Notes: generated from the letters alone by a model not told the origin. 64,000 bases of DNA from an uncultured Verrucomicrobiales bacterium (GCA_947039485.1 CAMQZC010000009.1:10974-74973); one strand, 5' to 3'. Positions 12,488-30,604 are shown, numbered from the stretch's first letter. Program-made: numbers and translations.

Positions 12488-13630
12488 ATGTCAGAACATC
12501 AGTCAGCATCTTCTCAATTAGAAAAAACAGACGCCAAGGAAGAACACCCTGATTTTCTCAGCAAGCAAATCATTACCTACCTTGGAAATAAACGCTCCCT
12601 GCTCAACTTCATCGGCAAAGCCGTCGAAGAAGTACAAGCACGCCTCGGCAAAGAAAAACTCATCACCCTAGACCTCTTTGCCGGCTCAGGAGTCGTCTCA
12701 AGATACCTCAAGAAATATTCTAAAAAATTATATTCAAATGATTTAGAATCCTACTCCGCCTACGTCAACGACTGCTACTTGACCAATTATTCCGAGCTAG
12801 ACATGGGATTGCTCAACGACATATCGCTAGAGTTAAAGGCGAACATCAACAAGCACGCACAACCCGGTTTTATCACAGAACTGTATGCGCCTAAAAACGA
12901 AAGCAGCATCACAGAGCAGGACCGCGTCTTCTACACGCGCCGCAACGCCATCTACATCGACACAGCGAGACAATTAATTGACAAGCTCCCCCTCGACCTG
13001 CAAAAATACTTCCTAGCCCCCCTCCTCTACAAGGCATCCGTGCATAACAACACATCAGGCATATTCAAGGGCTTCTATAAAAACAAAGAGCGAATTGGCC
13101 AATATGGAGGAGAAGGCAAGAACGCCCTAGCCCGAATAATGATGGACATCGACATCCCATTACCCATATTTTCGGCCTATGAATGCGAGACCATCGTGAT
13201 GCAAAAGGAATCGCTTGAAGCCGTAGAAAGCCTACCCGAGCTCGACTTATGCTATATGGATCCACCATACAACCAGCACCCCTATGGATCAAATTACTTC
13301 ATGCTCAATTTGATTTTAAACAACGAGCGGCCGCAGAAGCACTCTAAAGTATCAGGCATCCCCTGCGACTGGAACCGCTCCGCCTATAATAGGCCCAAAC
13401 TCGCCAAAGAAAAGCTATTCCAAGTCATCTCCGCCTGCCCCGCCAAGTTTATTTTAATCTCGTACAATTCGGAAGGCTTCATCAGCTATGATGAATTCAT
13501 TCATTTTTTGCAATCAATAGGCAGCGTAAAATCGCTACAAACAAATTACAACACCTTCAAAGGCAGCCGCAATTTGAGAGAGCGCAAACTTACCGTGACC
13601 GAATACCTCTTCCTTCTAGAAAAAAACTAG
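12488..13630 (+). CDS. N6-adenine DNA methyltransferase, alpha-type (Dam/FokI-like, D12 class), no cognate nuclease seen
   Basis: YLGNKRSLLNFI (Dam-like N-terminal motif), SAM motif I LDLFAGSGVVS, catalytic motif IV CYMDPPYNQHPYGSNYF, ILISYNSEGFI. The order motif I - long spacer - DPPY gives the alpha architecture. From memory it resembles the M.FokI halves. Confidence 0.85.
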   Translation: MSEHQSASSQLEKTDAKEEHPDFLSKQIITYLGNKRSLLNFIGKAVEEVQARLGKEKLITLDLFAGSGVVSRYLKKYSKKLYSNDLESYSAYVNDCYLTNYSELDMGLLNDISLELKANINKHAQPGFITELYAPKNESSITEQDRVFYTRRNAIYIDTARQLIDKLPLDLQKYFLAPLLYKASVHNNTSGIFKGFYKNKERIGQYGGEGKNALARIMMDIDIPLPIFSAYECETIVMQKESLEAVESLPELDLCYMDPPYNQHPYGSNYFMLNLILNNERPQKHSKVSGIPCDWNRSAYNRPKLAKEKLFQVISACPAKFILISYNSEGFISYDEFIHFLQSIGSVKSLQTNYNTFKGSRNLRERKLTVTEYLFLLEKN

Positions 13631-13832
13631 AAGCAAGAACCGCTGCTCAAGCAGCTCCGAAGCGTGCACTAGCGCAACCGCCAAATTCACCGCCTCGAAC
13701 AAGCTATCTATGTGAATAAGCAACACAACTCTACTTATTCTCAATACACTAACTATCGTCAACATACTTGACCTACGATAGCTCTAGATAACAAGCCATG
13801 CTTTTAGCTTGAACATCACTTGTGGATGAAGT

Positions 13833-15104
13833 ATGCTCTTTTTGTTCCCAACATACCCCATGGAGATAGAAGTCAAAGACGAAATATTAGAGCATATCAA
13901 GAGGCCCTCGCGTGCATTCCGCGGTGCTAGCTTAAGCGTGGAAGAATTATCAGAATTAACACACCAGCTTCATCATCAAGAATATCTCAGCATCTCTCAA
14001 TATACAGAAAGCGCAGCCAACACCCTTTACAAACTTCAGCGACTTGGTGAGAGTGTCGAGGATGTATTAAACTCCTTTAAACAACTTACGAAACAAGCCC
14101 CCTTCCAGCCCATCAGCTCACCTAAGTTCAGCTTCATCGACTTATTTGCTGGTATCGGTGGCTTCCGCATGGCCATGCAGCAACTAGGCGGCAAATGTGT
14201 CTTCTCATCCGAGTGGGATAAAGAAGCTCAGCGCACCTACTATGCTAACTACGGAGAAGTCCCCTATGGTGACATCACCAAGGATGAAACAAAGGCAGCA
14301 ATTCCTGACAACTTCGATGTACTCTGTGCAGGCTTCCCATGCCAAGCCTTCTCTATCGCAGGTAAGCGCGGAGGCTTTGATGATGTACGCGGCACATTGT
14401 TCTTTGATGTTGCTCAAATCATCAAAGACAAACGCCCAAAAGCCGTATTCCTTGAAAATGTTAAGGGACTGCTAAGCCATGACAAAGGACGCACCTTCCA
14501 AACCATTCTCCACACACTAAGAGAAGACCTCGGCTATACAGTCCCCGAGCCTCGTATCTTAAACGCTAAAAACTACGGCCTCCCTCAGAACAGAGAGCGC
14601 GTCTACATCGTCGCCTTCCGCAATGATATTGATGCCAGCAGCTTTAGCTACCCACTTCCCTCAAGCAAAGAGAAATGCTTTGCCGACGTCAAAGAGGAGA
14701 AGGTAGTATGCGCTCGCTACTACCTCTCAAATCAATACCTAAACACGCTAAAAGCCCACAAAGAAAGGCATGCGAGCAAAGGAAATGGCTTTGGTTACGA
14801 AATCATCCAAGACACTAGCTGCGCTAATGCCATCGTCGTAGGAGGTATGGGACGAGAGCGCAACCTTGTTATTGATCACCGCCTGACGGATTACACACCC
14901 AAAACCCGAATCAAAGGCGAGATTAACCGTGAAGGCATCCGCAAAATGACCCCACGAGAATGGGCTAGACTCCAAGGCTACCCTGATAATTTCCGAATCG
15001 TTGTCGCCGATGCCTCAGCCTACAAACAATTTGGCAACTCAGTCGCTGTACCAGCCATCAAAGCAACAGCACAACAGCTAATCAAAACACTCAACATCAA
15101 TTAA
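13833..15104 (+). CDS. DNA cytosine-5 methyltransferase, M.HpaII-like
   Basis: Motif I FSFIDLFAGIGGFRMA, motif IV CAGFPCQAFSIAGKRGG, motif VI FLENVKGL, motif VIII PQNRERVYIV, REWARLQGYPD, motif X QFGNSVAVP. From memory the overall sequence closely parallels M.HpaII (CCGG). The start could be M10 (13860). Confidence 0.92.
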   Translation: MLFLFPTYPMEIEVKDEILEHIKRPSRAFRGASLSVEELSELTHQLHHQEYLSISQYTESAANTLYKLQRLGESVEDVLNSFKQLTKQAPFQPISSPKFSFIDLFAGIGGFRMAMQQLGGKCVFSSEWDKEAQRTYYANYGEVPYGDITKDETKAAIPDNFDVLCAGFPCQAFSIAGKRGGFDDVRGTLFFDVAQIIKDKRPKAVFLENVKGLLSHDKGRTFQTILHTLREDLGYTVPEPRILNAKNYGLPQNRERVYIVAFRNDIDASSFSYPLPSSKEKCFADVKEEKVVCARYYLSNQYLNTLKAHKERHASKGNGFGYEIIQDTSCANAIVVGGMGRERNLVIDHRLTDYTPKTRIKGEINREGIRKMTPREWARLQGYPDNFRIVVADASAYKQFGNSVAVPAIKATAQQLIKTLNIN

Positions 15105-15107
15105 GCC

Positions 15108-16196
15108 ATGGCTATGAAAGGAAATAAAGGTGAATGGAGCGAAGTCTACACCCTCTTCAAGCTTCTAGGCGACAGAGAGCTACATTCTGGTGATGGGCAG
15201 CTCGAAAAGGTTGCCGATCTATTCTATCCCATTATTTCCATTCTCCGGCAGGAAAGCAGCGGAGAACAGCAGTACCATATCCAGAGTGAATCAATCCGTA
15301 TCACCAATGGAGACAAAGAAATCAACATCTCCATCAAGGATTTTCAAGAGAAAGCCAAAATACTCTTTGAGTCCATCAAAGCATCTCGTGGTAGCGCAAG
15401 CTTTGCCCTCCCAGAGATAGAAGCCTTCATGAGCTCAATCAACTGTGACAAACTCAAAGCAAGCTCAAAAGATAAAAGCGACATCCGCATCATCATCGAG
15501 GACATCCGCACAGGAGTAAACCCCACACTTGGCTTTAGTATCAAGTCCCAATTAGGTAGTGCCTCCACCCTATTCAACGCAAGCGGATCAACGAATGTAC
15601 TCTACAGCATCACAGGGGAGAAGCTATCTGCTGCTGATATCGAAGCCATCAACAGCATCAAGCCCAAAAAAGGACTGATCAAAGACCGCATCAGCGCCCT
15701 CAGGAACAAGGGTGCCGATATCTGCTTTCAAAGGATGGTATCACGCACATTCCACAACAACCTTGTTCTCATTGATAGCCTGATGCCACGCATCCTAGAT
15801 GAAATGATCAAACTCTACTACATCGAGGGCATCTCATCACTCAAAGACATCGTAAGTAAGCTAGAAGAAAGTAACCCACTCGCCTACGACATGGAGAATG
15901 GGCACCACTTCTACGAGTACAAAATTAAGCGCTTTCTCACAGACATAGCCCTAGGCATGACCCCTGCCAAGATTTGGAATGGTCACTATGATGTGACAGG
16001 CGGCTATCTTGTTGTCAAAGAGGATGGGGACATCCTCTGCTATCACATCTACAACAAAAACGACTTTGAGGACTACCTGCTCAATAACGTCAAATTCGAC
16101 ACACCAAGCACCAGCCGCCACGGCTTTGCCTCAATCGAGAATGACGGTGACGCAAACACATTCAAGCTCAATTTCCAGCTTAGATTCAAAGGATAA
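15108..16196 (+). CDS. Type II restriction endonuclease, HpaII family
   Basis: Starts 3 nt after the HpaII-like MTase stop. From memory, the N-terminus KGNKGEWSEVYTLFKLLGD matches the conserved start of the HpaII endonuclease family. Confidence 0.75.
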   Translation: MAMKGNKGEWSEVYTLFKLLGDRELHSGDGQLEKVADLFYPIISILRQESSGEQQYHIQSESIRITNGDKEINISIKDFQEKAKILFESIKASRGSASFALPEIEAFMSSINCDKLKASSKDKSDIRIIIEDIRTGVNPTLGFSIKSQLGSASTLFNASGSTNVLYSITGEKLSAADIEAINSIKPKKGLIKDRISALRNKGADICFQRMVSRTFHNNLVLIDSLMPRILDEMIKLYYIEGISSLKDIVSKLEESNPLAYDMENGHHFYEYKIKRFLTDIALGMTPAKIWNGHYDVTGGYLVVKEDGDILCYHIYNKNDFEDYLLNNVKFDTPSTSRHGFASIENDGDANTFKLNFQLRFKG

Positions 16197-16498
16197 TCAA
16201 GTTCTAGCTTAAGAACCTCATAGAAACATCACGGGAATACCTTCGCAATACAACTTCTCAAGGAGCGCGTTATTTAGTGAAGCGAGCAGAGAAAAACACT
16301 CTGGTGCGGTCAGTACAATTTCAAAAGAAATGATTGAATTAGGTGTCATTCCTAAACAGCTGACGGAAATGTCTTTATCCGAGTTCTATAAAGCATTTAG
16401 CTCAATCAAAGTTAATACGGCTTTCGTTGAAAAAACAATATACGCAACGCTATGTACAGTAATGAACTCAAGCATCACCTAGAGTTCATCAAGCTATC

Positions 16499-16529
16499 AG
16501 CACTCATCAAACCTATAATGATGAGTGCT
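16499..16529. terminator. Hairpin between convergent modules (possible bidirectional terminator)
   Basis: Perfect 11-bp inverted repeat agcactcatca (16499-16509) / tgatgagtgct (16519-16529), 9-nt loop, followed by atactttgtt. Lies 35 nt downstream of the minus-strand 300-aa gene. Confidence 0.45.
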
Positions 16530-16563
16530 ATACTTTGTTCCACATAAGAACAGCTTGAGCAAG

Positions 16564-17466
16564 TTACTTGTTAGATAATTTTCTTTTAGGGCATTCTTGA
16601 ATTTTCTTAAAAACTTTTCTAAACTCAATTAAAGTTTTCCTGAATTTCAAATTCTCTTTTTCATTGATTTCAGGCATCAAATGATGTGCAAGGTGATTAC
16701 GCCATTTAATCACCTCTTTTCCGTAACGCTCTAAAATATTTTCATAACATGACTCTGTACATGCGTGCTGCTGCTCACATTGTTTTAGTATTTTTTTATG
16801 TAATGCGTTTTTTCTTAACGTCGAGTTATAAACACTAGTACCACCTTTATCAATCAGACCCTGCAATTTCTCAACTTTATATTTTGATACATTTGTAAGA
16901 ACATCACTGGCTTGCTTCTGAATTGATCCAAGAATATATTTTATATGATCTCCTTCCTTTAGTATATCCCGTATAATTTCATCAAACTGAGCAACCTCCT
17001 GCATAGCTATACCTCGTAATGATGACATATCCATATCTCGCGTTAAGAAAAAATCAATCAAATCTTTGAAAGCTTCAGAACCCACCTCGAGGTCAGTCCG
17101 ATCAAAAAAATAGATACCATCACAATTATCCCCAAGATCACGTCTAGCTTTTTCTATATCGCTTGAGTAAAAGACAATATTCGTATAGATTTTTTTATCG
17201 GTTTTTGGATTGCGAATATTAGAAATTAAACCATTACCATTTTCGCTGAAGAGACTACTCAGATTGTAATCGACAACGAATAAATCATACATTGTATTCT
17301 TCTTTGTTAATTTTTCAAGTTCTGCATCAAGCGCATCTTGATTAATAGGTCTGACTATGTTAGAAGCAAAACCTTTATCTAGCATATGCTCCTCTATACA
17401 GGGAACATTAACAGTTAACCATGAATCATCGTCGTCTATCCATAATATATTGTAATCTAATTTCAT
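16564..17466 (-). CDS. Receiver (REC, CheY-like) domain protein with C-terminal HEPN-like Rx4H motif; putative effector of the island operon
   Basis: REC features: beta1 NILWIDDDD (D11-D14), DLFVVD66YNL (phospho-acceptor position), TNIVFYSS. C-terminal helical region with WRNHLAHH (R256-x4-H261, codons at 16684-16701) and a second RKNALH (218-223). Start overlaps the upstream gene's stop by 4 nt (ATGA). Confidence 0.6.
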   Translation of the reverse strand: MKLDYNILWIDDDDSWLTVNVPCIEEHMLDKGFASNIVRPINQDALDAELEKLTKKNTMYDLFVVDYNLSSLFSENGNGLISNIRNPKTDKKIYTNIVFYSSDIEKARRDLGDNCDGIYFFDRTDLEVGSEAFKDLIDFFLTRDMDMSSLRGIAMQEVAQFDEIIRDILKEGDHIKYILGSIQKQASDVLTNVSKYKVEKLQGLIDKGGTSVYNSTLRKNALHKKILKQCEQQHACTESCYENILERYGKEVIKWRNHLAHHLMPEINEKENLKFRKTLIEFRKVFKKIQECPKRKLSNK

Positions 17467-19856
17467 GATAAGTGCAGCTCTAAGGTGAATCCATTAGTAT
17501 AATTTGTAACAAGGACTTTCCCGTCTAATTTTTTCACAGTTTTTTCAACTTGATATAAACCCAGACCAGACCCCCTTGTTGTTGTCTCACCTTTTTCAAA
17601 AATCAAGTCAATACAATTTACATATCGCTCATTACTCACCCCATGCCCATCATCAGCGAATACAAACACCACACCGTCATTCTCTAGTCTATTCGAAATA
17701 GTTATATTACTTGCTTTGGCCTTCTTTGAATTTTCAATAATATTCTCCACCATCATCATGATTTCTAATGGAATGAAATCTATATTGATTGATAATCTGG
17801 TATCAATTTTATTGATTATCGAAATTCTTTTATTATATGTTAAATTTTTAATTTCAGCTATATATGCATCGATAAAGGTTCCAAGCTCACCGTTTATACG
17901 GTTTTGTTTATCAGTAAAATTATATAACGTAGCAAATTTCGCTATATTATAATTCTTCTGATTTGCCTCGCTAATAATCACAAGTAAATCTCGTATTTTA
18001 TCAGATATTTCGAGATCTTGTAGTGACCTAATAATACAAGTTTTGATTGTAGAATTATTAACTAATATCGAATGCATCGAAATTAGTAAATCGTCTATAT
18101 CCTGATTGGCGGTTTTCTTTAAAAAAGAATTAATACTATTAAGTTGCGCAACAGACCTCTCAGTTTCTTGAAGTTTTTTACTTTTCTTCTTTTCCGATTT
18201 TTCGGCGATCAATCGCTTATGGTCAGATTCCTGCTTAGCTTTTAATGCGTTCTCTGTCCTGTCTCGTTCTTTATTTATAATCTCAGCAACAGTACTCATT
18301 TCAGAATTTGTTAATTCCGATAAAGATTTACTACCTATTTTTTGAGAAAAATCATTTAAATAATCTCTATGTTTTTGATTAGCAACTTCTGAGATGTTTT
18401 TAATTGCATCAACGTTTAAATGAATTGTTTTAATCGACCAGTTAGATTTTAGTAACCTTTCTACAGTAATTTTTACTTTTTCGGACGAAATTTCTTTCAT
18501 CTTATACCTATCTGGATACTTTAACAAATCCTTTTCTGATATGACCTTTTTCGAATCAGGATCAATTAAATTCACAAACTTATTCCATTCTAGCGCTTCT
18601 ACTACGAATGTCTCTAACTGCCTTATAATATTTTCAATATAACCATAACTTTGATTTCTCTCACTTGCATGGCTAGCTTCTATACTAGCTTTATATTCTT
18701 TATCATGAGCAATTAACTCTCTAAATGCTGTATTATTAGCTAAGCCCTCGCGGTTTGACAAGACCTCGAAAACATCACCTTTATCGATAATGTCAACTCG
18801 ACCAAAAAGCTCGCGCGTACCCAGATAACGGGAACGACCTTGAGCCTTTCTTTGATCCCTACCCAACCAGTCATTATGGGGGTTTCCGTAAGGTGAGATT
18901 CTGAAGTTATTATAAAAAAGAAAAATAGAACCGTACTCAATAGCCCTGACTCCGATCGTTTTTGTAAAGTATGCCCTCGCAATAATATCCAAGTAGTGTA
19001 TCTCTGTTTTTACATTCTTCAGATTAGGGTATGGGTTCTTTACTTTGTACCTGTAAATTTCTGTACCTTGATAGAACAAAGAGGTATTTATATATGCTCC
19101 ATTTCCATCAATTGATGACTTTATATAAGTTGTTTTAAATGCTACTTTATCTAATATATTGTTATTAATTCGAGCGTTTAATTTTTTAATTAAATTTTTA
19201 TCTGTGTTATTAGAAAAAATTGTAATTGAAAATGTATCCTCTAAACTAGGTGAGAACTTTTCAAGCTCTGAAATTAACTGTTTTAGTTTATTTGTATCCC
19301 ACGCTTCTCTCAAGCGGTCAATTACAAGAACAGAACCAGTTGTCTTGAACGGAGAAACCTGATAAGAAGAAAGCTCAGCAATAAAATCACTTTCACTAAG
19401 CTCCACAAAATCCACCTGAATATCTTTCACCTCTTCATCAATTGCTCTATTTTCAAAAGAAGACCAATCAATGATTAATTTACAATAGTCGCCATTTGAT
19501 GATTTGGTATAGAGTGTAAGTGTAGCTCCAAGCCTATCACAGCTGAATCGTCCAACACCCTTATTTCCGGCATAAACCGTACCATCCTTGTTATTTAATT
19601 TCTCAGAATAAGCTATATTGAGCCATTTATTAACAATATCATCATAACACATGCCTTTACCGTTATCCGATATAATGATTTTCCCCTTAACAAGGTCATT
19701 CTCATCGATAAAGCGGATATTAGTATTGGTGGCAGCGGCATCCTTTGAATTTTTGATCAGCTCGATGATAGCTACATTATCACTATAAATTAGCTGCTTT
19801 CCTATAATGTTTTTAATAGAAGCGTTGACTTTAAATGCTAATTTCTTTTCATTCAT
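17463..19856 (-). CDS. 797-aa dual GHKL ATPase: N-terminal MORC/Hsp90/MutL-like module, coiled coil, C-terminal histidine-kinase-like transmitter
   Basis: N-terminal Bergerat fold: N box IELIKNSKDA (E32, N36, D39), G1 SDNGKGM, G2 GNKGVGRFS. Charged coiled coil at about aa 530-570. Candidate H box LISMH595SILVNN. C-terminal HATPase_c: N box VENIIENSKKA (N709), G1 ADDGHGV, G2 RGSGLGLYQV. No TM segments. Confidence 0.7.
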   Translation of the reverse strand: MNEKKLAFKVNASIKNIIGKQLIYSDNVAIIELIKNSKDAAATNTNIRFIDENDLVKGKIIISDNGKGMCYDDIVNKWLNIAYSEKLNNKDGTVYAGNKGVGRFSCDRLGATLTLYTKSSNGDYCKLIIDWSSFENRAIDEEVKDIQVDFVELSESDFIAELSSYQVSPFKTTGSVLVIDRLREAWDTNKLKQLISELEKFSPSLEDTFSITIFSNNTDKNLIKKLNARINNNILDKVAFKTTYIKSSIDGNGAYINTSLFYQGTEIYRYKVKNPYPNLKNVKTEIHYLDIIARAYFTKTIGVRAIEYGSIFLFYNNFRISPYGNPHNDWLGRDQRKAQGRSRYLGTRELFGRVDIIDKGDVFEVLSNREGLANNTAFRELIAHDKEYKASIEASHASERNQSYGYIENIIRQLETFVVEALEWNKFVNLIDPDSKKVISEKDLLKYPDRYKMKEISSEKVKITVERLLKSNWSIKTIHLNVDAIKNISEVANQKHRDYLNDFSQKIGSKSLSELTNSEMSTVAEIINKERDRTENALKAKQESDHKRLIAEKSEKKKSKKLQETERSVAQLNSINSFLKKTANQDIDDLLISMHSILVNNSTIKTCIIRSLQDLEISDKIRDLLVIISEANQKNYNIAKFATLYNFTDKQNRINGELGTFIDAYIAEIKNLTYNKRISIINKIDTRLSINIDFIPLEIMMMVENIIENSKKAKASNITISNRLENDGVVFVFADDGHGVSNERYVNCIDLIFEKGETTTRGSGLGLYQVEKTVKKLDGKVLVTNYTNGFTLELHLS

Positions 19857-19882
19857 GACGAATATTTCATATAGTTGTTCAA

Positions 19883-21097
19883 TTAGAGTAGTACCTTTAA
19901 AGCTAGACCTCCTTGCTCGGAGAACAATGGTGGGATAGCGTTGCCAATTTGGGTGTATCGAGGAACTTCCGATTTCCTAAGTATACCGCCTGTCGTATAT
20001 TTCCCCTTAAATTCAAAGCAATCAGGAAAGCCTTGTAACCTAGCATATTCTCGAACGGTTAAGATGCGTGGCTCGCAATAATGAATGAGATCATCAGGGT
20101 TTGTCGTTAGTGTTGGAGCTTGGCATTTACCCGAAAGAGGTACCAGCACCTGTTTCTTAATACCCAATTCCAGTTTAATCGCATTTGACAATTTAGCTCC
20201 GCCAATATCTCTTCGTTGAATCAGCTCAAACCTTTCTTTAATGCGTTCGGTATGCCTAGCAAAGCTATGACTATCAGGTATAGTCTCCTTATAACCTTTC
20301 CTAAGATAGCGCTGTAGAGCGGTCTGTGCTTTGTTATAGAGGCCACTTGAAAACGATTTCCTATCAGGGGTCTGTACGAGATTTGTAATCAGTAGATCTG
20401 ATATAGCATCAGAGACCGTAGGAGATACAGCAAGTTTGCGCTGCTGAAGAAACCCCTCCTTAATCTGATCTAAATTCTCAAAGAATTGATCCACTTTCTG
20501 CTGAGATGCACCTTCAGCCTCTCTATGCATACCCACAAGGATAAACCTAGTGCGCTTTTGAGGAACGCCATACTCACCGAAATTAATCAGTTTAGCGCAT
20601 ACGTAGTATCCAATTTTCTCAAGCTCGCTAATAGCAATATTAGAATATGCGCCCCCACCCTCCTGGTTATTTTTAAATTGCAGGGTAAAGCCTTTTACGT
20701 TCTCAAAAAAGACCAATTTAGGCTGCACCAAAGAAACAAACTGCACATAACTACGAAAGAGCTGATTTCGCACATCAGATTCCATACGCCTCCCTGCAAT
20801 AGAGAAGCCCTGACATGGGGGACCACCAGCGACTAAATCAATGGTTCCTTTCAACGATTTCAAGTCTTCTTCATGATCTCTAATAACATCAAGAATATCG
20901 TGATTCGTTTTAGGGAGCCATTCGGGCCAATCGAAATGATCAAGGCGGTTGCAAAGGTTATGCTCTAAGGTCTCAAAAGCATGAGGGCTTTTCTCAACAG
21001 CAAATACACCCTGCCATCCAGCCTGGCATAAACCCAATGATAGCCCTCCGCAACCAGCAAATATATCAATTACTCTCGGCTTGGGAATCTCATTCAT
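19883..21097 (-). CDS. DNA cytosine-5 methyltransferase (first gene of the AT-rich operon)
   Basis: Motif I VIDIFAGCGGLSLGL, motif IV GGPPCQGFSIAGRR, motif VI FFENVKGF, motif VIII PQKRTRFILVG, REYARLQGFPD, motif X QIGNAIPP. Confidence 0.92.
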   Translation of the reverse strand: MNEIPKPRVIDIFAGCGGLSLGLCQAGWQGVFAVEKSPHAFETLEHNLCNRLDHFDWPEWLPKTNHDILDVIRDHEEDLKSLKGTIDLVAGGPPCQGFSIAGRRMESDVRNQLFRSYVQFVSLVQPKLVFFENVKGFTLQFKNNQEGGGAYSNIAISELEKIGYYVCAKLINFGEYGVPQKRTRFILVGMHREAEGASQQKVDQFFENLDQIKEGFLQQRKLAVSPTVSDAISDLLITNLVQTPDRKSFSSGLYNKAQTALQRYLRKGYKETIPDSHSFARHTERIKERFELIQRRDIGGAKLSNAIKLELGIKKQVLVPLSGKCQAPTLTTNPDDLIHYCEPRILTVREYARLQGFPDCFEFKGKYTTGGILRKSEVPRYTQIGNAIPPLFSEQGGLALKVLL

Positions 21098-21511
21098 AAT
21101 AGGCTATTTCTCTCAGCATGCGCACATTGGCTACTAGCATCGGCATATAATATACACTATTCCAAAGCTAAATCAAGGTGAAACTTCAGAATCATTTCCA
21201 TGCTCAGCGTTTATAAAAAAATCAATTATAGTTCATTGCGGTTATCACGCACAAAGCAGGCCGACCTTTAGATGCTTGCGAAAAAATAGAGGAAAAGCAA
21301 GCCTAGAGCGAGGCGTTGATCTATTGCGGGGTGAGTCCTGCCTGTGTGGAATATCGCGCGTGCTCCTATCGCTTTGCGGTATTGTGCGCGAGAGTATGGC
21401 GGCGACTTGTCATGATGGGGCTGTGGAGCTCAACTATCTCTTCAATTATATTTTGCGGGGGGGCGAATTTATGATTCGACAAAATTAACACACCTAGTGT
21501 AAAATTGATGC

Positions 21512-24500
21512 ATGGGCATAGTAGAGACAGCTGTAAAAATTGATTTTTTATCTTGGGATGATAGGGCTTGTGTTTTGGTGGCTAAGCGTTTGCTTGGTCT
21601 CGGAAATACCAATGCAGATTCTGATGCTGATGCGCCTGTGGTGGTGGTGACGCCGACTCGTGAGGCGGCGCGCTTGCTGCGCGAGCAGTTGGCGATTTTG
21701 GCGCCTCAGGCGGCTTTCTTGAGTCCGCGTATTATTCCGCTTTCGCAGCTTGAGATGCGCGATTCTCGCTGTGTTGGCTCGGGGGCGGAGTTGCTTCTTT
21801 GGCATCAGTGGCTCGCGGAGAGGGCTAAGGAGCTGGGGAATCTCTATCCTCATGGCTGGGAGTTTAAGTCTGAGAATTGGCTGCGTGAGGCGAAGCAGAC
21901 GGTTGATTTGCTCCATCGTCTGGCTAAGGAGGGGCTGGATGCTCATTCTGAGGGCTGGGCGCTGCTGGCGGAGTCTGATTCTCGCTGGGCTGAGTTGCGC
22001 GAGTTGCAGTTGCTCTGTCGTGAGCGTGTGCATGCGATGGGGCTATTGGATGCTACGGAGGCGCTGCGCTGCAGTGTGCCTGCTGGCTCGCGGATTATTC
22101 TTGCTTGTGTGCCTCAGCTGCCGCGCTCGCTGACGCTGATGTTGGAGGGCGCTGCTTGCTCTATTGATATTTGGGTGCATGCGCCTGCTAGCTATGCTAG
22201 TCGTTTTGATGCTTGGGGCTCTCCGACGGATGCGTGGCTCTCGCCATGCTCGGCTGAGGAGCTGGGGCTGGATCGTGATGACTGGCGTGAGCATTATTCT
22301 CAGGCTGCGGATTTGTGGCGGATGGCGGAGATGTCTTGCGCTCGCGCTGCGGCAATCAATGCGGTGAATCCTGTGCCTCATCAGCTGGCGCTGGCTATCT
22401 GTGATGCGGAGATGGAGCCTTGCATTGAGGAGGAGCTCTCGCATCATGGTGCGACGGTTTATTGTCCTCGCGGTTTGTCTTTTGTGAGCAGTTCTTGGCA
22501 TAAGTTGCTGCGTGAGTTGCTCTCGGTGATTGATGCTTTGGCTCTCTCTGGGCTGTCGCCTCAATCAGATGCGGCTCATTTCCCTGCTCCGGTGTTGATT
22601 CGCTTGATGAAGTGGCCTGCGATGCAGCGTTTCTTGCAGGCTGGGGGCGATGCTGGGACGTTACGGGATGTTGCCACGATGCTGGATGAGCTGCAGTTTA
22701 GCAATATTCCGGTGTTTGAGTCGAGTTTGCGGCTTTATCTCTCAAGGATGAAGGGGGGGGCTCTTTGTGCTAATCTGCTCAAGCGTCTTGTCAATGAGTT
22801 GCAGCAGGCTTTGCAAGGGCCTGTGCAATTGCTGCGTTGCTTGGAGCGTTGGATATTGGCGAGTGGGTCACAGGATGCTCAGCAGGCAAAGCTAGATGCG
22901 TTTTTCCTCCAGCAGGTTCAGCAGCTTATTCCTGTGCTCTCAGAGGGGGGATTCTCCTACGGTTGCCGCGATGTCTTGATTTTGCTCCAATTGATTTGTG
23001 AGTCTCACATGACGCCTGGGCTGCGCGATAGCGAGAGCTTGGACTTGCTGGGCTGGATGGAGCTCAGCTACAGCCCTGCGCGTGAGCTGGTGATTATTGG
23101 GATGCATAATGGTATTATTCCTGAGAATTGCTCGACGAGCGCTCTGCTGACTATCGCGACGATGAGTCAGCTAGACTTGCCCTCGGATGAGCAACGGGCA
23201 GCGCGTGATGCTTATTTGCTGCGCAGTATGATTGCGGGGCGCGGGATTGAGCGCTGTTATTTCTATTTTTCTCTCTTTGATGGGAAGCAGAATCCGCTCT
23301 CGCCTTCTTCTCTCTTGTTTAGGCTTTGCCCTGATTCACATTTGGCTAGCTTTGCCTCACATTTCTTTGATAATCAGGATAAGTTGCCTCGCAGCGCTGT
23401 CTTAAAGTCTGATGAGAGTGGCTGGCGACTCAAGTCGATTGGGCTGGGCGCTGGGGCTCAACTTGAGCTCAGCGAGCTTGCACAGCTGAGCTGTGAGCAG
23501 CTGGGGATTGAGAATCCTATGGCTGGGCGGCATTTCTCGCCTTCTTCTCTGCGTGAGTTCTTGCAGTGTCCGCTGCGATTCTGGCTGAGCAAGATTCATA
23601 GGCTGGATTCTAATGCTGTGGAGGAGGATAAGCAGAATCTTAATTCGCAGGAGTTGGGGAGTTTCCTACATACTGTGTTGGAGCAGTTCATCCGTCTCTA
23701 TCCGAGTCAAGCGGCGATTGTTACGGCGAGCAAGGAGGGGCTGATGGAGGAGGAGTTGCGCCGTCTCTTTGATGAGAGCTATGAGCGCGACTATGGCAAG
23801 AAGGCCTTGCTGCCTCAGCAGATTCAGCGTGAGGGGATGCTCAAGCGTCTGCTCGCCTATCTCTCCCTGCACCGCGAGCTCTGGCAGGATGGCTGGGAGT
23901 GTGCGACGGATCAGCAGGGTCAGTTGATGCTAGAGTATCAGGCAAGCTGGACGCTGGGCAAGCATACGCTAAAGATAATTATCGACCGTGTCGATCAGCG
24001 TCGGCGTGAGGATGGCTCCTATGAGTACCGCGTGTTGGACTACAAGACGGGTAATGTGGAGAGCTGCAGCAAGGAGCATCTCTGCGCGGTGAAGGATGTG
24101 GAGTTGATGGCGGGTTGTTTTGTCGATAAACTGCACCCTGTTTATATGCCCTTTGGCGTGAGTAAGGATAAGGCCTGCCGCTGGAAGAATCTACAGCTGC
24201 CTCTCTATGCGGCTTGGCTACGCGATCACTTTGCAAAGTCTACGATCAGTGTGGGCTACATCCATCTGGCGCGCAATTCTGAGGATGTGAAGCTGATGCT
24301 TTGGGAGTCGCCTGATGAGAAGCAGCCGCTCTTTGACCCGCTGGAGTCCGAGCTAAATGCGCCCGATACTGAGACGCTCATGGATAGTGCCCTCGCCTGT
24401 GCGCAGGACTGCATGGATCTGGTGAGTGAGGGTCGTTGCTTCGTCTCTGCGGAGCAGTTGAACTGGCCTATTGCACGAGATTACATCTTTAATGACCTCA

Positions 24501-24550
24501 TTGCCTTACAAGCTATTGACAAACTTTTTACCAACACAACATCTGTATGA
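21512..24550 (+). CDS. addB: AddB/RexB-like helicase-nuclease subunit (PD-(D/E)XK nuclease with probable Fe-S staple)
   Basis: 1012 aa. C-terminal RecB-type nuclease motifs IIIDRVDQ...YRVLDYKTG and LQLPLYAAWL. Four cysteines placed as in the AddB iron staple (FLQCPLRFW ... ALACAQDC...EGRC). Its stop overlaps the addA start (ATGA at 24547-24550). Confidence 0.8.
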   Translation: MGIVETAVKIDFLSWDDRACVLVAKRLLGLGNTNADSDADAPVVVVTPTREAARLLREQLAILAPQAAFLSPRIIPLSQLEMRDSRCVGSGAELLLWHQWLAERAKELGNLYPHGWEFKSENWLREAKQTVDLLHRLAKEGLDAHSEGWALLAESDSRWAELRELQLLCRERVHAMGLLDATEALRCSVPAGSRIILACVPQLPRSLTLMLEGAACSIDIWVHAPASYASRFDAWGSPTDAWLSPCSAEELGLDRDDWREHYSQAADLWRMAEMSCARAAAINAVNPVPHQLALAICDAEMEPCIEEELSHHGATVYCPRGLSFVSSSWHKLLRELLSVIDALALSGLSPQSDAAHFPAPVLIRLMKWPAMQRFLQAGGDAGTLRDVATMLDELQFSNIPVFESSLRLYLSRMKGGALCANLLKRLVNELQQALQGPVQLLRCLERWILASGSQDAQQAKLDAFFLQQVQQLIPVLSEGGFSYGCRDVLILLQLICESHMTPGLRDSESLDLLGWMELSYSPARELVIIGMHNGIIPENCSTSALLTIATMSQLDLPSDEQRAARDAYLLRSMIAGRGIERCYFYFSLFDGKQNPLSPSSLLFRLCPDSHLASFASHFFDNQDKLPRSAVLKSDESGWRLKSIGLGAGAQLELSELAQLSCEQLGIENPMAGRHFSPSSLREFLQCPLRFWLSKIHRLDSNAVEEDKQNLNSQELGSFLHTVLEQFIRLYPSQAAIVTASKEGLMEEELRRLFDESYERDYGKKALLPQQIQREGMLKRLLAYLSLHRELWQDGWECATDQQGQLMLEYQASWTLGKHTLKIIIDRVDQRRREDGSYEYRVLDYKTGNVESCSKEHLCAVKDVELMAGCFVDKLHPVYMPFGVSKDKACRWKNLQLPLYAAWLRDHFAKSTISVGYIHLARNSEDVKLMLWESPDEKQPLFDPLESELNAPDTETLMDSALACAQDCMDLVSEGRCFVSAEQLNWPIARDYIFNDLIALQAIDKLFTNTTSV

Positions 24551-27500
24551 GCAGCACTAATCATATGAAATCACAGGCAAATCCCTTTAATATGTATATT
24601 GCGGCCTCAGCTGGATCAGGCAAGACCTATCAGCTGGTGAATCGCTTTATCGGTCTGCTATGCATGCAGTACTTACGCGATCATAAAATTGAGGTAAAGA
24701 GGCTTATGGCTATTACCTTTACACGCAAGGCTGCGGCGGAGTTCAAATCGCGTATTCTATCGAGTCTGGCGCAGGCTTCGGCATCGCCTGAGGCGGCGGC
24801 GGAGTTTTGGGATGAGCGCGTTGATGTGACGCTGAGGCAGTTTGCTGCTAATTATCAGCGGCCCAATCATCCGCAGGCTATTTTCTTGTCTATTCTGCGT
24901 GATGTGATGGCGCAGTTTGGGCAGCTGCAACTCAGCACGATTGACAGTCTCTTGGAGCGCATGCTGCGAGGGCTTGAGCCAGAGCTGGGTATTAGCAATA
25001 TCAGGATTATGGATCCGATTGAGGAGACGATGTATCGCAGAAAAACGCTCAATGCGAGCTATCTCAAGAATCAGTCGCTGGAGGATATGAGTAATCTGGC
25101 TGATAGCTTTAGCGATAGTCAGAAATCGGATGGTGCCATGAGTTCCCCTGATCGGGCGTTGATGGAGCTCATCAAGGATCATCATAAAAACTACATCAAG
25201 TCACCTGATGCTCTCTGGGGTGGGCGATCTGCGGAGATGTCTGATGCTCAGCTGGCTGAGTTTGGGCTGAGCCGCGCGGATGTGACCTCCTGCCTCTCGG
25301 AGGATGCGCATCGGGAGATGATCGAGCGTCTGCGTGGGCTTCTTGCTCATGAGCAAGAGTTCTTCCCTGCGCCTACGGAGGTGAAGGAGCAGAAGAATTG
25401 CTACACTGTGGGTAATCACCCGATGGAGATTAACATGAGCAAGGTCAACCAGAAGAGCTATCGAAAGTATTTTACGACATTTGCGCATTCGCTCTGCCAG
25501 CTCAATGATGATTTGATGCTGCCAAAGAAGAATAAGTTCTACGTCAATCCCTCGTTGGCTGCTATGGAGAGCGAGTACTATCCTGCCTACTGGGATATCT
25601 GCCGCCAGAATGATGTTAATCTCAATGCGCTGTCTCAGTCACATGATGGCTGGCGATGGCAGCAGGTTCTGATGCGCACGCAGTCGATTGCGCATATTAT
25701 TGAGAGCTTCGAGCGTACTTATGAGCAGGAGGTGCGCCAATCGGGGACGATGGGCTTTGATGATATTGCTAATTTGATTCAAAACCGCGTGGAGGAGTTC
25801 TCACTGGCGAAGCTGCAGGAGCGTATTGATTTGAATATTGAGCACTGGATGCTTGATGAGTTCCAAGATACCTCGCATCAGCAGTATGCTATTTTGCTCA
25901 ATCTCCTGCATTCTCGCTCACAGCTGGGGGATGATGGCAGTGTCTTTATGGTGGGGGATACCAAGCAGAGTATCTACCAATTCCGCGGTGGTGATCCAGA
26001 GATTTTCATCAAGGCGCGTGATTTTCTCGTCGATGAGAGCGATCAGCTGGGCGAGGAGTCGTCGCAGTGTATGAGTTTGAATAAGTCTTATCGCTCGGCA
26101 CCCGAGGTGCTGGAGCTGAGCAACATGCTTTTTGGCGCGGATTGCTTTGCCAAGCTTGCGTCGCTGAGTCTGCCTGCCTCGCGCGAGCAGTGGGCTAAGT
26201 TTAACTACAAGGAGCATCTCAGCAACAGGCCCGATCTGCGGGGCTGTGCTGAGATATGGCAAATGCTGCCTGGGGGCAAGAACTTCGCTCTCCCAGAATA
26301 TGGGAGTGATGATATCCTCCTCCACGGCATTGCCGCCAAGCTGGCGCAGCTGCGCCCCAAGGACAGCGTCAATCCGCCTAGCTGCGCGATTCTCGTGAGG
26401 TCAAATAACAATGGCAAGAAGACGCAGGAGCGTCTGCTAGAGCTACAAGACATCTACGGTTTTGAGGGACCTATCATGCTCAATGCCAAGAAGCAGGTGG
26501 GGATGGATTCTCTGCTCGGTGTGGCTCTCATTGAGTTCTTCTGCTGGCTCAATACTCCGGGGGACAAGCATAGTCTCAAGCTGCTGCAGCTCTCGCCTCT
26601 CTGGCAGCGCATTGAGGAGCTCGGCGGTCTCAATAGCTGGGCTTCCCTGCGTGAGCTCTGGACGAATAAGGGCTGCTACGCGCTGTTGCTGCTGCTCTTT
26701 GATGGGGCTGAGTTCCTGCTTGTTACCAATGACTTTCTCCACCAGCGCAAGAAGATCTGGCTTGAGGAGGCCTCGCGCTTTGATGCTGTTGGGGGCAATC
26801 TCAGCGAGTGGATTACCCATATGCGCGAGCTGGTCAAGAATGAGCAGTCGCAGGGCAATGAGATTAGTATCATGACGATTCATCAGGCGAAGGGTCTGGA
26901 GTTTGACTTTGTATTTTTCCCTGTTTTCTCGCCATGCAAGGCCTTCACCGATTTGACCACGGCCAAGCTCTTGACTCGCAGAGATGCCGAGGGACAAGAT
27001 TTGTCGGTTATCCTGCGCCCATCCAAGGCGCTGCACGAGAGGTATCCCAACTTTGAGAAGTGTATGCTTGAGCCGCGATTTGTCAATGAGGAGCTGGGGG
27101 GCTACTGCCAGCTCTATGTCGCCATCACGCGTGCCAAGATGGCGAGCTACATCATGCTTCCTCCTCCGTCAAAGGATCCCAAGGAGGAGTCTTTTGCTAC
27201 TCTGCTACACAAACTCAGCGAGCAGCTGCCCGCTCCCAGTGATAAGGATGAGCTCCATCACCATGATGGCGAGACGCTGTTGGCTCAATGCACGCTACGC
27301 TTGGGTGATACCGAGTGGTACTTGCAGCGTAGGGAGCCGAGGGAGGCTGAGGAGCCTGCCGCGATGCTGGAGCCTGTGCTTGACTACCGCTTCCGCTCGC
27401 TGCCGCGCAGCACGCCCTCGGGGCTGGATCGCGACAGGCAGCAAGATGATGCGGCGCCGCTCATGCCTAGGCTCTACCCTCTGAGTGAGGGCAAGGGCGC

Positions 27501-27981
27501 GGCCTTTGGCTCGCTGGTTCATGGGCTCTTTGAGCAGGTGAGCTGGTTGGGTGAGCCTCTGCCAGAAGGGGCGGATGTCGATGAGCTCGCTCTCTCGACG
27601 ATTACACGCGCTTTGCGCAGTGCGGCTTGGGAGCCTTACTTCCGCCGCCCTGAGGCTGAGTTCACGCTCTACCGCGAGCAGAATATTGAGTGTATTATCA
27701 AGGGGCAGTGGGTCTCTGGGCAGATTGACCGCATGCTTGTGTGCTACGACCATGGCCGACAAGCAGGCGCGAGCTCTGCGCATATCATGGATTTCAAGAC
27801 TGATGCTAATCTGACTGAGGCTGCGGGCAAGGATCACTACCGCGCCCAGATGCGGGCCTACCGCTTGATGGTGGCGCAGGCTTTTGGGCTCAATCTCCAT
27901 GAGGTCACGGTGAGCCTGCTGCATTGCCCTGCTGAGGGTGAGCCTGCGGCATGGAGCTTTGCTGAGGATGAGTGGGCATGA
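24547..27981 (+). CDS. addA: AddA/RecB-type UvrD-family helicase with C-terminal nuclease
   Basis: Walker A ASAGSGKTYQL, motif II MLDEFQDTS, motif III VGDTKQSIYQFRGG, SYRS, IHQAKGLEFD, YVAITRAK. C-terminal PD-(D/E)XK motifs: GSLVHGLFE, GQIDRM, IMDFKTD, YRAQMRAY. Confidence 0.88.
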   Translation: MSSTNHMKSQANPFNMYIAASAGSGKTYQLVNRFIGLLCMQYLRDHKIEVKRLMAITFTRKAAAEFKSRILSSLAQASASPEAAAEFWDERVDVTLRQFAANYQRPNHPQAIFLSILRDVMAQFGQLQLSTIDSLLERMLRGLEPELGISNIRIMDPIEETMYRRKTLNASYLKNQSLEDMSNLADSFSDSQKSDGAMSSPDRALMELIKDHHKNYIKSPDALWGGRSAEMSDAQLAEFGLSRADVTSCLSEDAHREMIERLRGLLAHEQEFFPAPTEVKEQKNCYTVGNHPMEINMSKVNQKSYRKYFTTFAHSLCQLNDDLMLPKKNKFYVNPSLAAMESEYYPAYWDICRQNDVNLNALSQSHDGWRWQQVLMRTQSIAHIIESFERTYEQEVRQSGTMGFDDIANLIQNRVEEFSLAKLQERIDLNIEHWMLDEFQDTSHQQYAILLNLLHSRSQLGDDGSVFMVGDTKQSIYQFRGGDPEIFIKARDFLVDESDQLGEESSQCMSLNKSYRSAPEVLELSNMLFGADCFAKLASLSLPASREQWAKFNYKEHLSNRPDLRGCAEIWQMLPGGKNFALPEYGSDDILLHGIAAKLAQLRPKDSVNPPSCAILVRSNNNGKKTQERLLELQDIYGFEGPIMLNAKKQVGMDSLLGVALIEFFCWLNTPGDKHSLKLLQLSPLWQRIEELGGLNSWASLRELWTNKGCYALLLLLFDGAEFLLVTNDFLHQRKKIWLEEASRFDAVGGNLSEWITHMRELVKNEQSQGNEISIMTIHQAKGLEFDFVFFPVFSPCKAFTDLTTAKLLTRRDAEGQDLSVILRPSKALHERYPNFEKCMLEPRFVNEELGGYCQLYVAITRAKMASYIMLPPPSKDPKEESFATLLHKLSEQLPAPSDKDELHHHDGETLLAQCTLRLGDTEWYLQRREPREAEEPAAMLEPVLDYRFRSLPRSTPSGLDRDRQQDDAAPLMPRLYPLSEGKGAAFGSLVHGLFEQVSWLGEPLPEGADVDELALSTITRALRSAAWEPYFRRPEAEFTLYREQNIECIIKGQWVSGQIDRMLVCYDHGRQAGASSAHIMDFKTDANLTEAAGKDHYRAQMRAYRLMVAQAFGLNLHEVTVSLLHCPAEGEPAAWSFAEDEWA

Positions 27982-29827: not shown

Positions 29828-30604
29828 ATGAAGATACTTTTTCTAGGCACAGGCACCTCCACAGGAGTCCCCGTTATTGGCTGTGACTGCGAGACCTGCA
29901 GATCAGAGCACCCGCGCAATAAGCGTTTGCGCTCCTCTGTGCTCGTGCAGACGCAGGACACAATAATCCTTGTTGACTCCTGCACTGACCTGCGCCAGCA
30001 GGCACTGCGCCATGAGCTTAGCTCCATTGATGCGGTGCTCTACACCCATCCTCACCTTGATCATGTCGCTGGCTTTGATGAGCTGCGCGCCTTTTGCTGG
30101 CACCGCCGCGATGGTCTTCCTCTCTATGCTGGGCCTGAGTGCATGGAGAATCTCAAGCGCATGTACGGCTGGGCATTTGCCAGCAGCAACACCTATCAGG
30201 GCTATATCCGCCCCGAGCCGCATACCCATGACGGCAGCACGCCCTTCATGATTGGCGATATTGAGATCACGCCCGTGCTCATCGAGCACGCCAGCGTGCA
30301 GACACATGGCTATGTCTTCCGCCACGAGGGCAAGAGCTTTGGCTACGCTCCTGATGTGAAGAATATCCCCAAGGACTCAATGCCCCTGCTCGCCAACTTA
30401 GACGCCTTTGCCATGGATGGTCTGGGCGCAGATAGCCACCCCTCCCACCTCTCGGTGGCGGAGAATGTCGAGCTGATGCGCCAGCTGCGCCCCAAGCAGG
30501 GCTTGATTACCCACAGCGGTCACCGCGTGGAGTATGTGGCCTGCTCGGAGATACTCCCAGACTTCATGAGCATCGCCTATGATGGCATGCTACTTGAGCT
30601 CTGA
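29828..30604 (+). CDS. MBL-fold metallo-hydrolase (PhnP/GPMB-like)
   Basis: MKILFLGTGTSTGVPVIGCDCETC, then the metallo-beta-lactamase motif THPHLDHVAG. Confidence 0.8.
   Translation: MKILFLGTGTSTGVPVIGCDCETCRSEHPRNKRLRSSVLVQTQDTIILVDSCTDLRQQALRHELSSIDAVLYTHPHLDHVAGFDELRAFCWHRRDGLPLYAGPECMENLKRMYGWAFASSNTYQGYIRPEPHTHDGSTPFMIGDIEITPVLIEHASVQTHGYVFRHEGKSFGYAPDVKNIPKDSMPLLANLDAFAMDGLGADSHPSHLSVAENVELMRQLRPKQGLITHSGHRVEYVACSEILPDFMSIAYDGMLLEL

Follow-up and report, generated by a model that had tools for sequence, protein, structure and literature searches.

The stretch of DNA considered here, hereafter the window, comprises 64,000 nucleotides (nt) from an uncultured Verrucomicrobiales bacterium (GCA_947039485.1, CAMQZC010000009.1:10974-74973). 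Between positions 16,564 and 21,097 it carries three minus-strand genes, which encode a C5 cytosine DNA methyltransferase (Dcm), a histidine-kinase-like (HK-like) protein with two GHKL units and a protein made of a receiver (REC) domain and a probable HEPN ribonuclease (RNase) domain. The locus is laid out as follows, with product lengths in amino acids (aa):

19883-21097, minus strand: C5 cytosine DNA methyltransferase (Dcm), 404 aa, first gene (PF00145 9.2e-57, TIGR00675 8.4e-48)
19857-19882, minus strand: spacer of 26 nt between the Dcm and HK-like genes (sequence read directly)
17463-19856, minus strand: double-GHKL protein, 797 aa, paraMORC-type ATPase plus histidine-kinase transmitter (Pfam and PDB profile matches)
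16564-17466, minus strand: REC protein, 300 aa, receiver plus probable HEPN (translation of the open reading frame, ORF; ATGA overlap with the kinase gene)

The 797-aa and 300-aa genes are coupled by a stop/start overlap, ATGA, which was likewise read directly, and the arrangement of the three genes supports one operon-like unit; scans for promoters and terminators returned chance-level matches only. The block has a guanine-plus-cytosine (GC) content of 0.33 against ~0.54 for the genome. Along the window, GC lies at 0.32-0.37 across 16-20 kb and at about 0.50-0.60 elsewhere, the individual values being 0.326 for the receiver gene (response regulator, RR), 0.327 for the kinase gene (HK), 0.43 for the Dcm gene and 0.544 for the flanking AddB gene. 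A previous account of this DNA, made from the sequence alone (the sequence-only reading), had described the three ORFs with their gap and overlap, and their AT-richness relative to the neighbours, from which it suggested a horizontal acquisition of the block. Layout and base composition could all be read in the sequence, and the motifs quoted for the three genes are present in the translations, with the codons of RNHLAH, H595 and D66 checked. That the AT-rich block is foreign and mobile is supported by its low GC and by the copies found on mobile elements, described below.

Domain architecture of the kinase-like and receiver proteins

The domains of the second and third gene products map to the following intervals:

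19401-19787, minus strand: N-terminal Bergerat-fold GHKL ATPase, aa 24-152 (HATPase_c_3 3.7e-25)
18507-19400, minus strand: middle domain, aa 153-450, highly conserved (most invariant columns of a 21-member alignment)
17877-18101, minus strand: DHp helices (H595 at 18072-18074, codon checked)
17469-17765, minus strand: catalytic ATP-binding (CA) domain, aa 698-796 (HATPase_c 1.7e-14)
17089-17466, minus strand: receiver (REC) domain, D66 at 17269-17271 (AlphaFold2 model, Foldseek, family PF00072)
16567-17088, minus strand: C-terminal all-alpha domain, probable HEPN RNase (R256-N-H-L-A-H261 at 16684-16701)

More than 2586 homologues of the 797-aa protein were retrieved by sequence search, and conservation was scored in an alignment of 21 diverse members. 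Invariant in all of them are the N-terminal Bergerat residues E32, N36, D64, G66, G68, G97, K99, G100 and G102, the histidine H595, and the residues N705, N709, D735, G739, G762, G764 and G766 of the N, G1 and G2 boxes. When the family profile was compared with the PDB, the DHp and CA domains of HK853 were matched with an E-value of 2.3e-14, H595 being aligned on H260, the phospho-accepting histidine of the HK853 'SHELRTP' motif; the CA domain also matches those of EnvZ and QseC, and the N-terminal part of the profile matches the GHKL domains of TRAP1 and MORC2. The protein therefore joins an ATPase of paraMORC type to a genuine histidine-kinase transmitter: it presents the Glu, Asn, DxGxG and GxxGxG elements of a MORC-type Bergerat fold, together with the two hallmarks of two-component kinases, a DHp domain with its phospho-accepting His and a CA domain with N, G1 and G2 boxes. 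The C5-methyltransferase identity of the first gene (PF00145 at 9e-57), the MORC/Hsp90-type N-terminus of the second (HATPase_c_3 and the TRAP1/MORC2 profile matches) and its kinase transmitter (HK853 alignment, invariant H595 and boxes) had all been anticipated in the sequence-only reading. No Pfam or PDB sequence match was obtained for aa 153-450, where an S5-like transducer would be expected by analogy with paraMORCs. NCBIfam and PADLOC searches with the 797-aa and 300-aa proteins returned nothing beyond weak GHKL similarity.

The 300-aa protein of the window has no match in a Pfam scan, and phmmer against the PDB produced spurious repeat-protein matches only. A sequence search gathered its family in 25 clusters, in which three groups of residues are conserved, namely D12, D61, D66 and T95; R151-G152 and D162; and R256-N-x-L-A-H261. 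In the AlphaFold2 model (pLDDT 82, pTM 0.81) the N-terminal half has a (beta-alpha)5 arrangement and the C-terminal half consists of helices only. With Foldseek the N-half matches response-regulator receiver domains (TM-score to the target up to 0.75, probability 1.0), and PF00072 matches 18/24 family members, so that the receiver fold claimed for this N-terminus is borne out; the acidic pocket of receivers is present as well.

Whole-chain Foldseek searches were swamped by the receiver, and the C-terminal domain was therefore modelled alone (pLDDT 79). Because the fold searches with it were not significant, the assignment to HEPN is based on the motif, on profiles and on helix topology. As regards the motif, R-N-x-[LFYI]-[AG]-H is kept in 50/50 C-terminal domains from unrelated genomes, and RNHLAH (aa 256-261) has the form expected of HEPN proteins, Rx4-6H with a polar residue after the R. 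As regards profiles, 44 C-terminal domains were scanned alone against Pfam, and the five families that recurred are all HEPN: RiboL-PSP in 8 domains (best 7.1e-6), MAE_28990 in 5, Apea in 4, Swt1 in 3 and Cthe2314 in 2. The window domain itself matches HEPN_MAE_28990 at 0.0057, the HEPN matches cover most of the C-terminal domain, and a PDB profile search aligned the family motif with that of HepS. Finally, in the published description of HEPN domains (PMC3710099) helix 3 of a four-helix core terminates in the motif, helices 2 and 3 are separated by an insert, and a conserved acidic residue is located upstream. In the AlphaFold2 model, helix 238-261, the penultimate one, ends in the motif and is followed by a loop and by helix 269-291; a variable insert (172-237) is predicted between helices 2 and 3, and D162 in helix 148-171. 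This residue is near-invariant (invariant in alignment A1, at >=90% in alignment A4). The predicted topology thus fits that description.

Homology of the C-terminal domain with HEPN is, on this evidence, quite likely, and an RNase output is probable from the sequence. The HEPN assignment put forward by the sequence-only reading accordingly stands as far as motif, profiles and topology go, and lacks a significant match in fold searches. Since the output of the receiver protein is not a DNA-binding domain, the protein would be an effector rather than a transcription factor.

Gene order, mobility and exchange of outputs

A genome scan with a single protein found no relatives, and an alignment-based scan with one genome per species succeeded, revealing relatives encoded in at least 542 species-level genomes. 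Locus counts, obtained by ORF calling and hidden Markov model searches, refer to the best 80 of these >=542 loci. The 80 include Alpha-, Gamma-, Delta- and Epsilonproteobacteria, Bacteroidota, Chloroflexota, Acidobacteria and Elusimicrobia, and further Gastranaerophilales, Firmicutes, Treponema and a Methanosarcinaceae archaeon. A Dcm homologue lies directly upstream of the kinase gene in 76/80 loci and a REC-HEPN gene directly downstream in 51/80, 47 of these 51 having also the adjacent Dcm; the exact 4-nt overlap between the kinase and REC-HEPN genes is found in 31/51. The synteny in unrelated genomes by which the proposed unit could be judged is therefore present, and its recurrence across many phyla places the association far beyond chance. 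In 72 loci the genes directly 5' of the HK-like gene belong to one Dcm family whose members align almost without gaps. They are 43-56% identical to the window Dcm, and the near-gapless alignment extends through the variable target-recognition region. Such cohesion indicates that the methylase is a component of the unit and not a bystander.

Carriage on mobile elements was observed repeatedly. In a clade whose kinase shares 58% identity with that of the window, the unit terminates a prophage-like element that encodes Terminase_6C, DUF5681, a ParB-N6/N4 methylase, DUF2924 and a serine recombinase; the opposite flank varies from contig to contig. An Elusimicrobia copy is flanked by the same prophage-like module. 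The Vibrio campbellii copy belongs to an integrative mobilisable element with integrase, AlpA, TrwC relaxase and coupling protein. Of the IMG/VR contigs, 17 contain the system, and both of its architectures are represented among them (see below for the second); distant relatives occur on plasmids, including about 43 Campylobacter plasmids with distant kinase-like relatives. Adjoining one of the prophage-like insertion sites (L088 6044-7675) there is also a fusion of reverse transcriptase and trypsin-like protease (RVT_1 + Trypsin), which is a defence-associated architecture.

Comparison with a sister strain (L084) showed that the kinase and receiver genes have been replaced together, and defined two further features:

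16507-19894, no strand assigned: exchanged HK+RR cassette (blastn against sister strain L084: no DNA homology in the interval)
16211-16506, plus strand: decayed 5' remnant of an HNH_2 endonuclease gene (aligns with L084 4342-4639; start codon lost, in-frame stops)

The flanks of the cassette share 98.3% and 99.1% DNA identity with L084 (blastn). The right-hand junction is at 19894/19895, just upstream of the 26-nt spacer, with homology breaking at 19895; no tRNA gene or flanking repeats were found at the cassette boundaries. In the sister strain the Dcm retains 98% protein identity to that of the window, the kinase-like protein (761 aa) is 31% identical and the REC-HEPN protein (329 aa) 23% identical, with 'RNGGAH' kept. 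The methylase being conserved and the other two proteins both divergent, kinase and receiver must have been exchanged as a pair while the Dcm stayed in place. Cognate phosphotransfer partners would have to be replaced together in this way, and strain-level turnover of this kind is typical of conflict genes. The sister HNH_2 gene is intact (246 aa, L084 4342-5082; PF13391 1.9e-13, PADLOC HNH 1.7e-28).

The output of the system is also exchanged between loci. In 20/80 the third gene encodes a receiver-like protein with a different helical tail that lacks RNxxAH, its receiver-like domain matching that of the window with an hhalign probability of 96%. These alternative loci (L003, L041, L066, L096 and others) have a fourth gene, for a product of 215-250 aa with an invariant His in 'GHG' and an invariant Cys in 'C.S'. 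The only recurrent Pfam match of this product is a weak one to Peptidase_C25 (2/17 members, 2.4e-4), and a PDB profile search gave no protease match; its identity as a clan-CD (caspase/gingipain-like) protease is put forward, from these residues, as a hypothesis only.

Accessory genes add to this variety. A HAD/PNKP-like phosphatase of about 145 aa is encoded directly after the REC-HEPN gene, often overlapping it, in 15/97 related loci, also in the clade closest to the window and in Vibrio, and is absent from the window:

L085-L090, about 13254-13688, and L108, 12320-12769: HAD/PNKP-like phosphatase gene

The HAD protein may act as a reset or buffer for phospho-Asp, in analogy to the DtcB protein of the Detocs system, or as an RNA 3'-end healing enzyme; a phosphatase beside a receiver gene fits a phosphorylation-controlled toxin. 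Regarding DNA nucleases, HNH_2 homologues are found near 3/97 related loci and Mrr near 1/97, a Mrr_cat gene following the Vibrio copy. A distant relative on a Bacteroides finegoldii plasmid (L082, NZ_OY725905.1, 22620-27722) departs from the window in gene order and in methylase type, with co-directional genes for, in turn, a kinase-like protein, a 209-aa receiver-like protein, an HNH endonuclease and an N6 DNA methylase. The absence of buffer and DNA nuclease, which the sequence-only reading had given as a trait of the gene set, thus holds for the window, qualified by its dead HNH_2 remnant, and fails for relatives, which often add the phosphatase and sometimes HNH_2 or Mrr. A receiver-only third gene product of about 135 aa was noticed at L039, L048, L059 and L063, and could be a truncation or a DtcB-like buffer.

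On the other side of the HNH_2 remnant, the window carries a separate restriction-modification (R-M) block:

12488-16196, plus strand: D12-class N6A methylase, HpaII-type Dcm and R.HpaII (PF02086 1.7e-18, PF00145 1.1e-100, PF09561 2.7e-130; PADLOC MTase_II, REase_II)

Its GC of 0.45-0.48 is between those of the host and of the kinase cassette, and the site between the glycosyltransferase gene and addB looks like a defence hotspot. Further along lie an AddAB-like pair (21512-27981), a gene for an SMC_N/AAA_23 protein (28100-29761) and, adjoining these, one for a 258-aa MBL-fold protein (29828-30604, plus strand, corresponding to L084 18317-19093); its counterpart in the sister strain bears the annotations PF23023 (Anti-Pycsar Apyc1) and Lactamase_B. 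The GC skew changes sign near 21 kb (window about 20000-22000), with a cumulative minimum of about -4.0, and is negative again beyond about 37 kb; the large genes on both sides of the change (1-16 kb and 21.5-28 kb) are on the plus strand.

Relation to described systems

The sequence-only reading put the system forward as a candidate undescribed one, which is right only in part, since the architecture had been described. In 2021, Bellieny-Rabelo, Pretorius and Moleleki (GBE 13:evab024; PMC8011034) reported a soluble 'HK-like' protein with HATPase_c_3, DHp and HATPase_c, an adjacent 'RR-like' partner (91.6% linkage in 644 regions) and a C5-methylase immediately upstream, and the Pfam families PF19191 (HEF_HK) and PF19192 (Response_reg_2) were created by the same authors. 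The RR-like proteins were said to have no other known domain and a regulation of R-M was speculated; no effector domain was recognised and no defence role proposed (PMC8011034). The window unit shares with that pair the kinase architecture, the adjacent receiver, the upstream C5-methylase, the R-M-rich surroundings and the proposed paraMORC ancestry, and the taxa overlap (Vibrio, Bacteroides, Loktanella/Yoonia and Akkermansia). PF19191 and PF19192 are present in the current Pfam and match E. coli proteins in the analyses of others, and gave no match at E<=1 in the window proteins or in 21 HK and 24 RR relatives; formal membership is therefore not claimed. The window unit and the 2021 pair have the same architecture and probably belong to the same broad family. 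What goes beyond PMC8011034 is the HEPN-type C-terminus (a probable output), the Cys/His protein as alternative output, the HAD phosphatase as accessory gene, the carriage on mobile elements and the cassette swap between strains.

As the sequence-only reading had expected, PADLOC v2 gives no full-system match on the window, and none of its models covers the kinase, the receiver or the components of the variants. The gene set is likewise not described in the HEPN survey (PMC3710099), the MORC paper (PMC2292703) or the papers on NTP-conflict systems, BREX, CoCoNuT and Detocs. Four known groups can nevertheless be compared with it. Detocs (Rousset et al. 2023) has in common a soluble histidine kinase and a receiver protein with a swappable, non-DNA-binding effector output, and its His and Asp are required for defence (Rousset et al. 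2023). However, the Detocs sensor, DtcA, is a TPR protein and that of the window is of GHKL/paraMORC type; Detocs has an obligatory receiver-only buffer, DtcB, whereas the window has no receiver-only gene and some relatives have the HAD phosphatase instead; and the Detocs effectors are PNP, restriction endonuclease (REase), TOPRIM or transmembrane (TM) hydrolase, not HEPN, in systems without a methylase. Membership in Detocs was rejected on these grounds (the sensor is not TPR, there is no receiver-only gene), the kinase and receiver having also no PADLOC match.

With the paraMORC and MORC ATPases (Iyer, Abhiman and Aravind 2008; PMC2292703) the window protein shares intact N-terminal GHKL motifs, the association with cytosine methylase, Vsr and HNH genes, and a sporadic, mobile distribution. 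The paraMORC1-5 groups, in contrast, either occur alongside helicases and DNA nucleases or end in C-terminal domains of RE-fold, TIR or other type, and none of those described has a histidine-kinase transmitter or a receiver partner (PMC2292703). The HEPN anticodon nucleases of PrrC/RloC type and HepS would resemble the window system in that a HEPN RNase, with an RNxxAH-type motif, is restrained by or coupled to a DNA restriction/modification module and let loose upon infection. Their control, however, is exerted through contacts between proteins, the partner being the R-M complex or a protein of the phage, and not by His-Asp phosphotransfer, and no significant overall sequence or fold match links them to the window protein. 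Assignment to Type II R-M was also rejected, as the unit has no intact DNA nuclease and the HNH_2 candidate is a pseudogene remnant.

An E. coli unit of similar composition, '2CM2', is listed in Table S6 of DefensePredictor (PMC13092281), where a response-regulator-receiver protein accompanies one with HATPase_c_3/HATPase_c_5; a related E. coli protein carries Response_reg_2 (PMC13092281). The log-odds of 2CM2, 14.78, is the highest listed (PMC13092281) and counts for a defence-like reading.

Candidate function and rival explanations

The three-gene feature is real and coherent, and has been partly anticipated in the literature. The reading favoured here, held at about even chances, is that of a mobile, methylation-linked phosphorelay conflict system, serving anti-phage or anti-mobile-genetic-element (anti-MGE) defence or an R-M-like addiction. 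In the proposed mechanism, Dcm would mark the resident DNA, and the GHKL ATPase of the 797-aa protein would act with the middle domain as a cytoplasmic sensor, for which the most plausible signal would be DNA without the Dcm mark or interference with methylation. The activated DHp/CA module would autophosphorylate on H595, and the phosphoryl group would pass from H595 to D66 of the translationally coupled REC-HEPN protein. Receiver phosphorylation would then switch the HEPN domain (R256, N257 and H261, with D162), probably via dimerisation, and the resulting RNA cleavage would abort growth or infection; we infer the sensed signal, the direction of the switch (phosphorylation on or off), an RNase activity and any defence phenotype from the observations above. 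A more specific version is only tentative: discrimination between self and non-self by methylation would be transduced through a His-Asp phosphorelay instead of being coupled to a DNA nuclease, with the paraMORC clamp reading unmodified DNA. Taken jointly with that version, and equally doubtful, the clamp would act alone or with Dcm, the HEPN and caspase-like outputs would be interchangeable, and the HAD protein would provide the reset or buffer.

Several points weigh against these proposals. At the receiver, the conserved basic residue after beta5 is Arg123, which replaces the canonical Lys. The isolated C-terminal model gave nothing significant with Foldseek against the PDB and BFVD (best E 0.55), HEPN toxins appear among the top PDB fold matches only at probability <=0.13, and every Pfam HEPN match is under the gathering threshold. 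HNH_2, Mrr_cat and HNH accompany some relatives, so that an RNase may not be the only or the main output. In the sensor half no DNA-binding or methyl-reading domain was identified, and since the same Dcm is kept with kinases 31% identical, a sequence-specific reading by the kinase is unlikely unless the Dcms of the system share their specificity. Lastly, the 2CM2 pair, cloned under pBAD as two genes without a methylase, was scored as not defensive (defensive = FALSE; PMC13092281). This is negative evidence, of a weak kind, the likeness to the window having been judged by architecture, and the defence function claimed by the sequence-only reading is left without support from these E. coli proteins.

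The negative cloning result agrees with a close rival, unlikely in itself, in which the same wiring would serve a selfish addiction or stabilisation module. Cells losing the element would be killed or arrested: the Dcm marks would decay, the kinase would sense unmethylated host DNA and the RNase would fire, thereby stabilising the carrier prophage or island. Prophage-like and integrative elements consistently have the system among their cargo, its methylase is tightly coupled to the kinase/receiver pair, the E. coli pair gave no phage protection (PMC13092281), and R-M systems are known to act in this way, as discussed in PMC8011034. The exchange of kinase and receiver with the Dcm kept and the swapping of effectors are, however, more typical of arms-race immunity. 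Addiction and immunity are not mutually exclusive roles.

Two other explanations are less likely than addiction. According to the published interpretation (PMC8011034), the pair would be a regulatory two-component system for neighbouring R-M genes or the epigenetic state, which in the present case would make the C-terminal domain a non-catalytic interaction or regulatory module. The enrichment of R-M genes around the pair, the up-regulation of the Pectobacterium genes in planta (PMC8011034) and the lack of confirmation of HEPN by fold search speak for it. It becomes improbable, however, given a receiver protein without DNA-binding output domain, a catalytic-type RNxx[AG]H motif that is invariant in 50/50 relatives, the replacement of the output by the Cys/His protein at other loci, and the transfer of the unit, as a cargo complete in itself, to sites where other R-M genes are lacking.

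It is similarly improbable that a separate DNA nuclease (HNH_2, Mrr_cat or HNH) is the true effector and the receiver protein a licensing adaptor, in which case the window copy would be crippled or decaying. The intact HNH_2 gene beside the sister allele and its decayed remnant in the window, the in-operon HNH of the Bacteroides plasmid relative, the Mrr_cat after the Vibrio copy and the HNH_2 enrichment reported in PMC8011034 would all suit this explanation. Against it, such nucleases are near so few loci (3/97 for HNH_2, 1/97 for Mrr), most loci consist of just Dcm, HK and REC-HEPN with overlapping genes, the three ORFs of the window are intact with all catalytic residues present, and the sister HNH_2 gene, which comes after R.HpaII on the opposite strand, could be part of the R-M block there. 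A chance juxtaposition of an orphan Dcm and an unrelated cytoplasmic two-component pair, for which only the general frequency of methylase genes in islands could be invoked, has a negligible probability and is refuted by the synteny: Dcm directly precedes the kinase gene in 76/80 loci from many phyla, the ORFs overlap or abut, and the Dcms make up a single cohesive family.

Should the methylation-linked phosphorelay reading prove true, the locus would represent a widespread system, present in at least 542 species-level genomes of bacteria and at least one archaeon, in which epigenetic self-marking is linked to a phosphorelay-controlled RNase. It would join R-M, defensive two-component signalling as in Detocs and HEPN-based abortive infection, so far separate themes, and would assign a role to the fusions of paraMORC and kinase reported from prokaryotes in 2021. 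The sister-strain swap provides a natural experiment in which one methylase is combined with two kinase/effector pairs, and a soluble sensor-kinase/effector pair with natural output swapping would be useful for engineering and for the study of how MORC-type proteins read the state of DNA.

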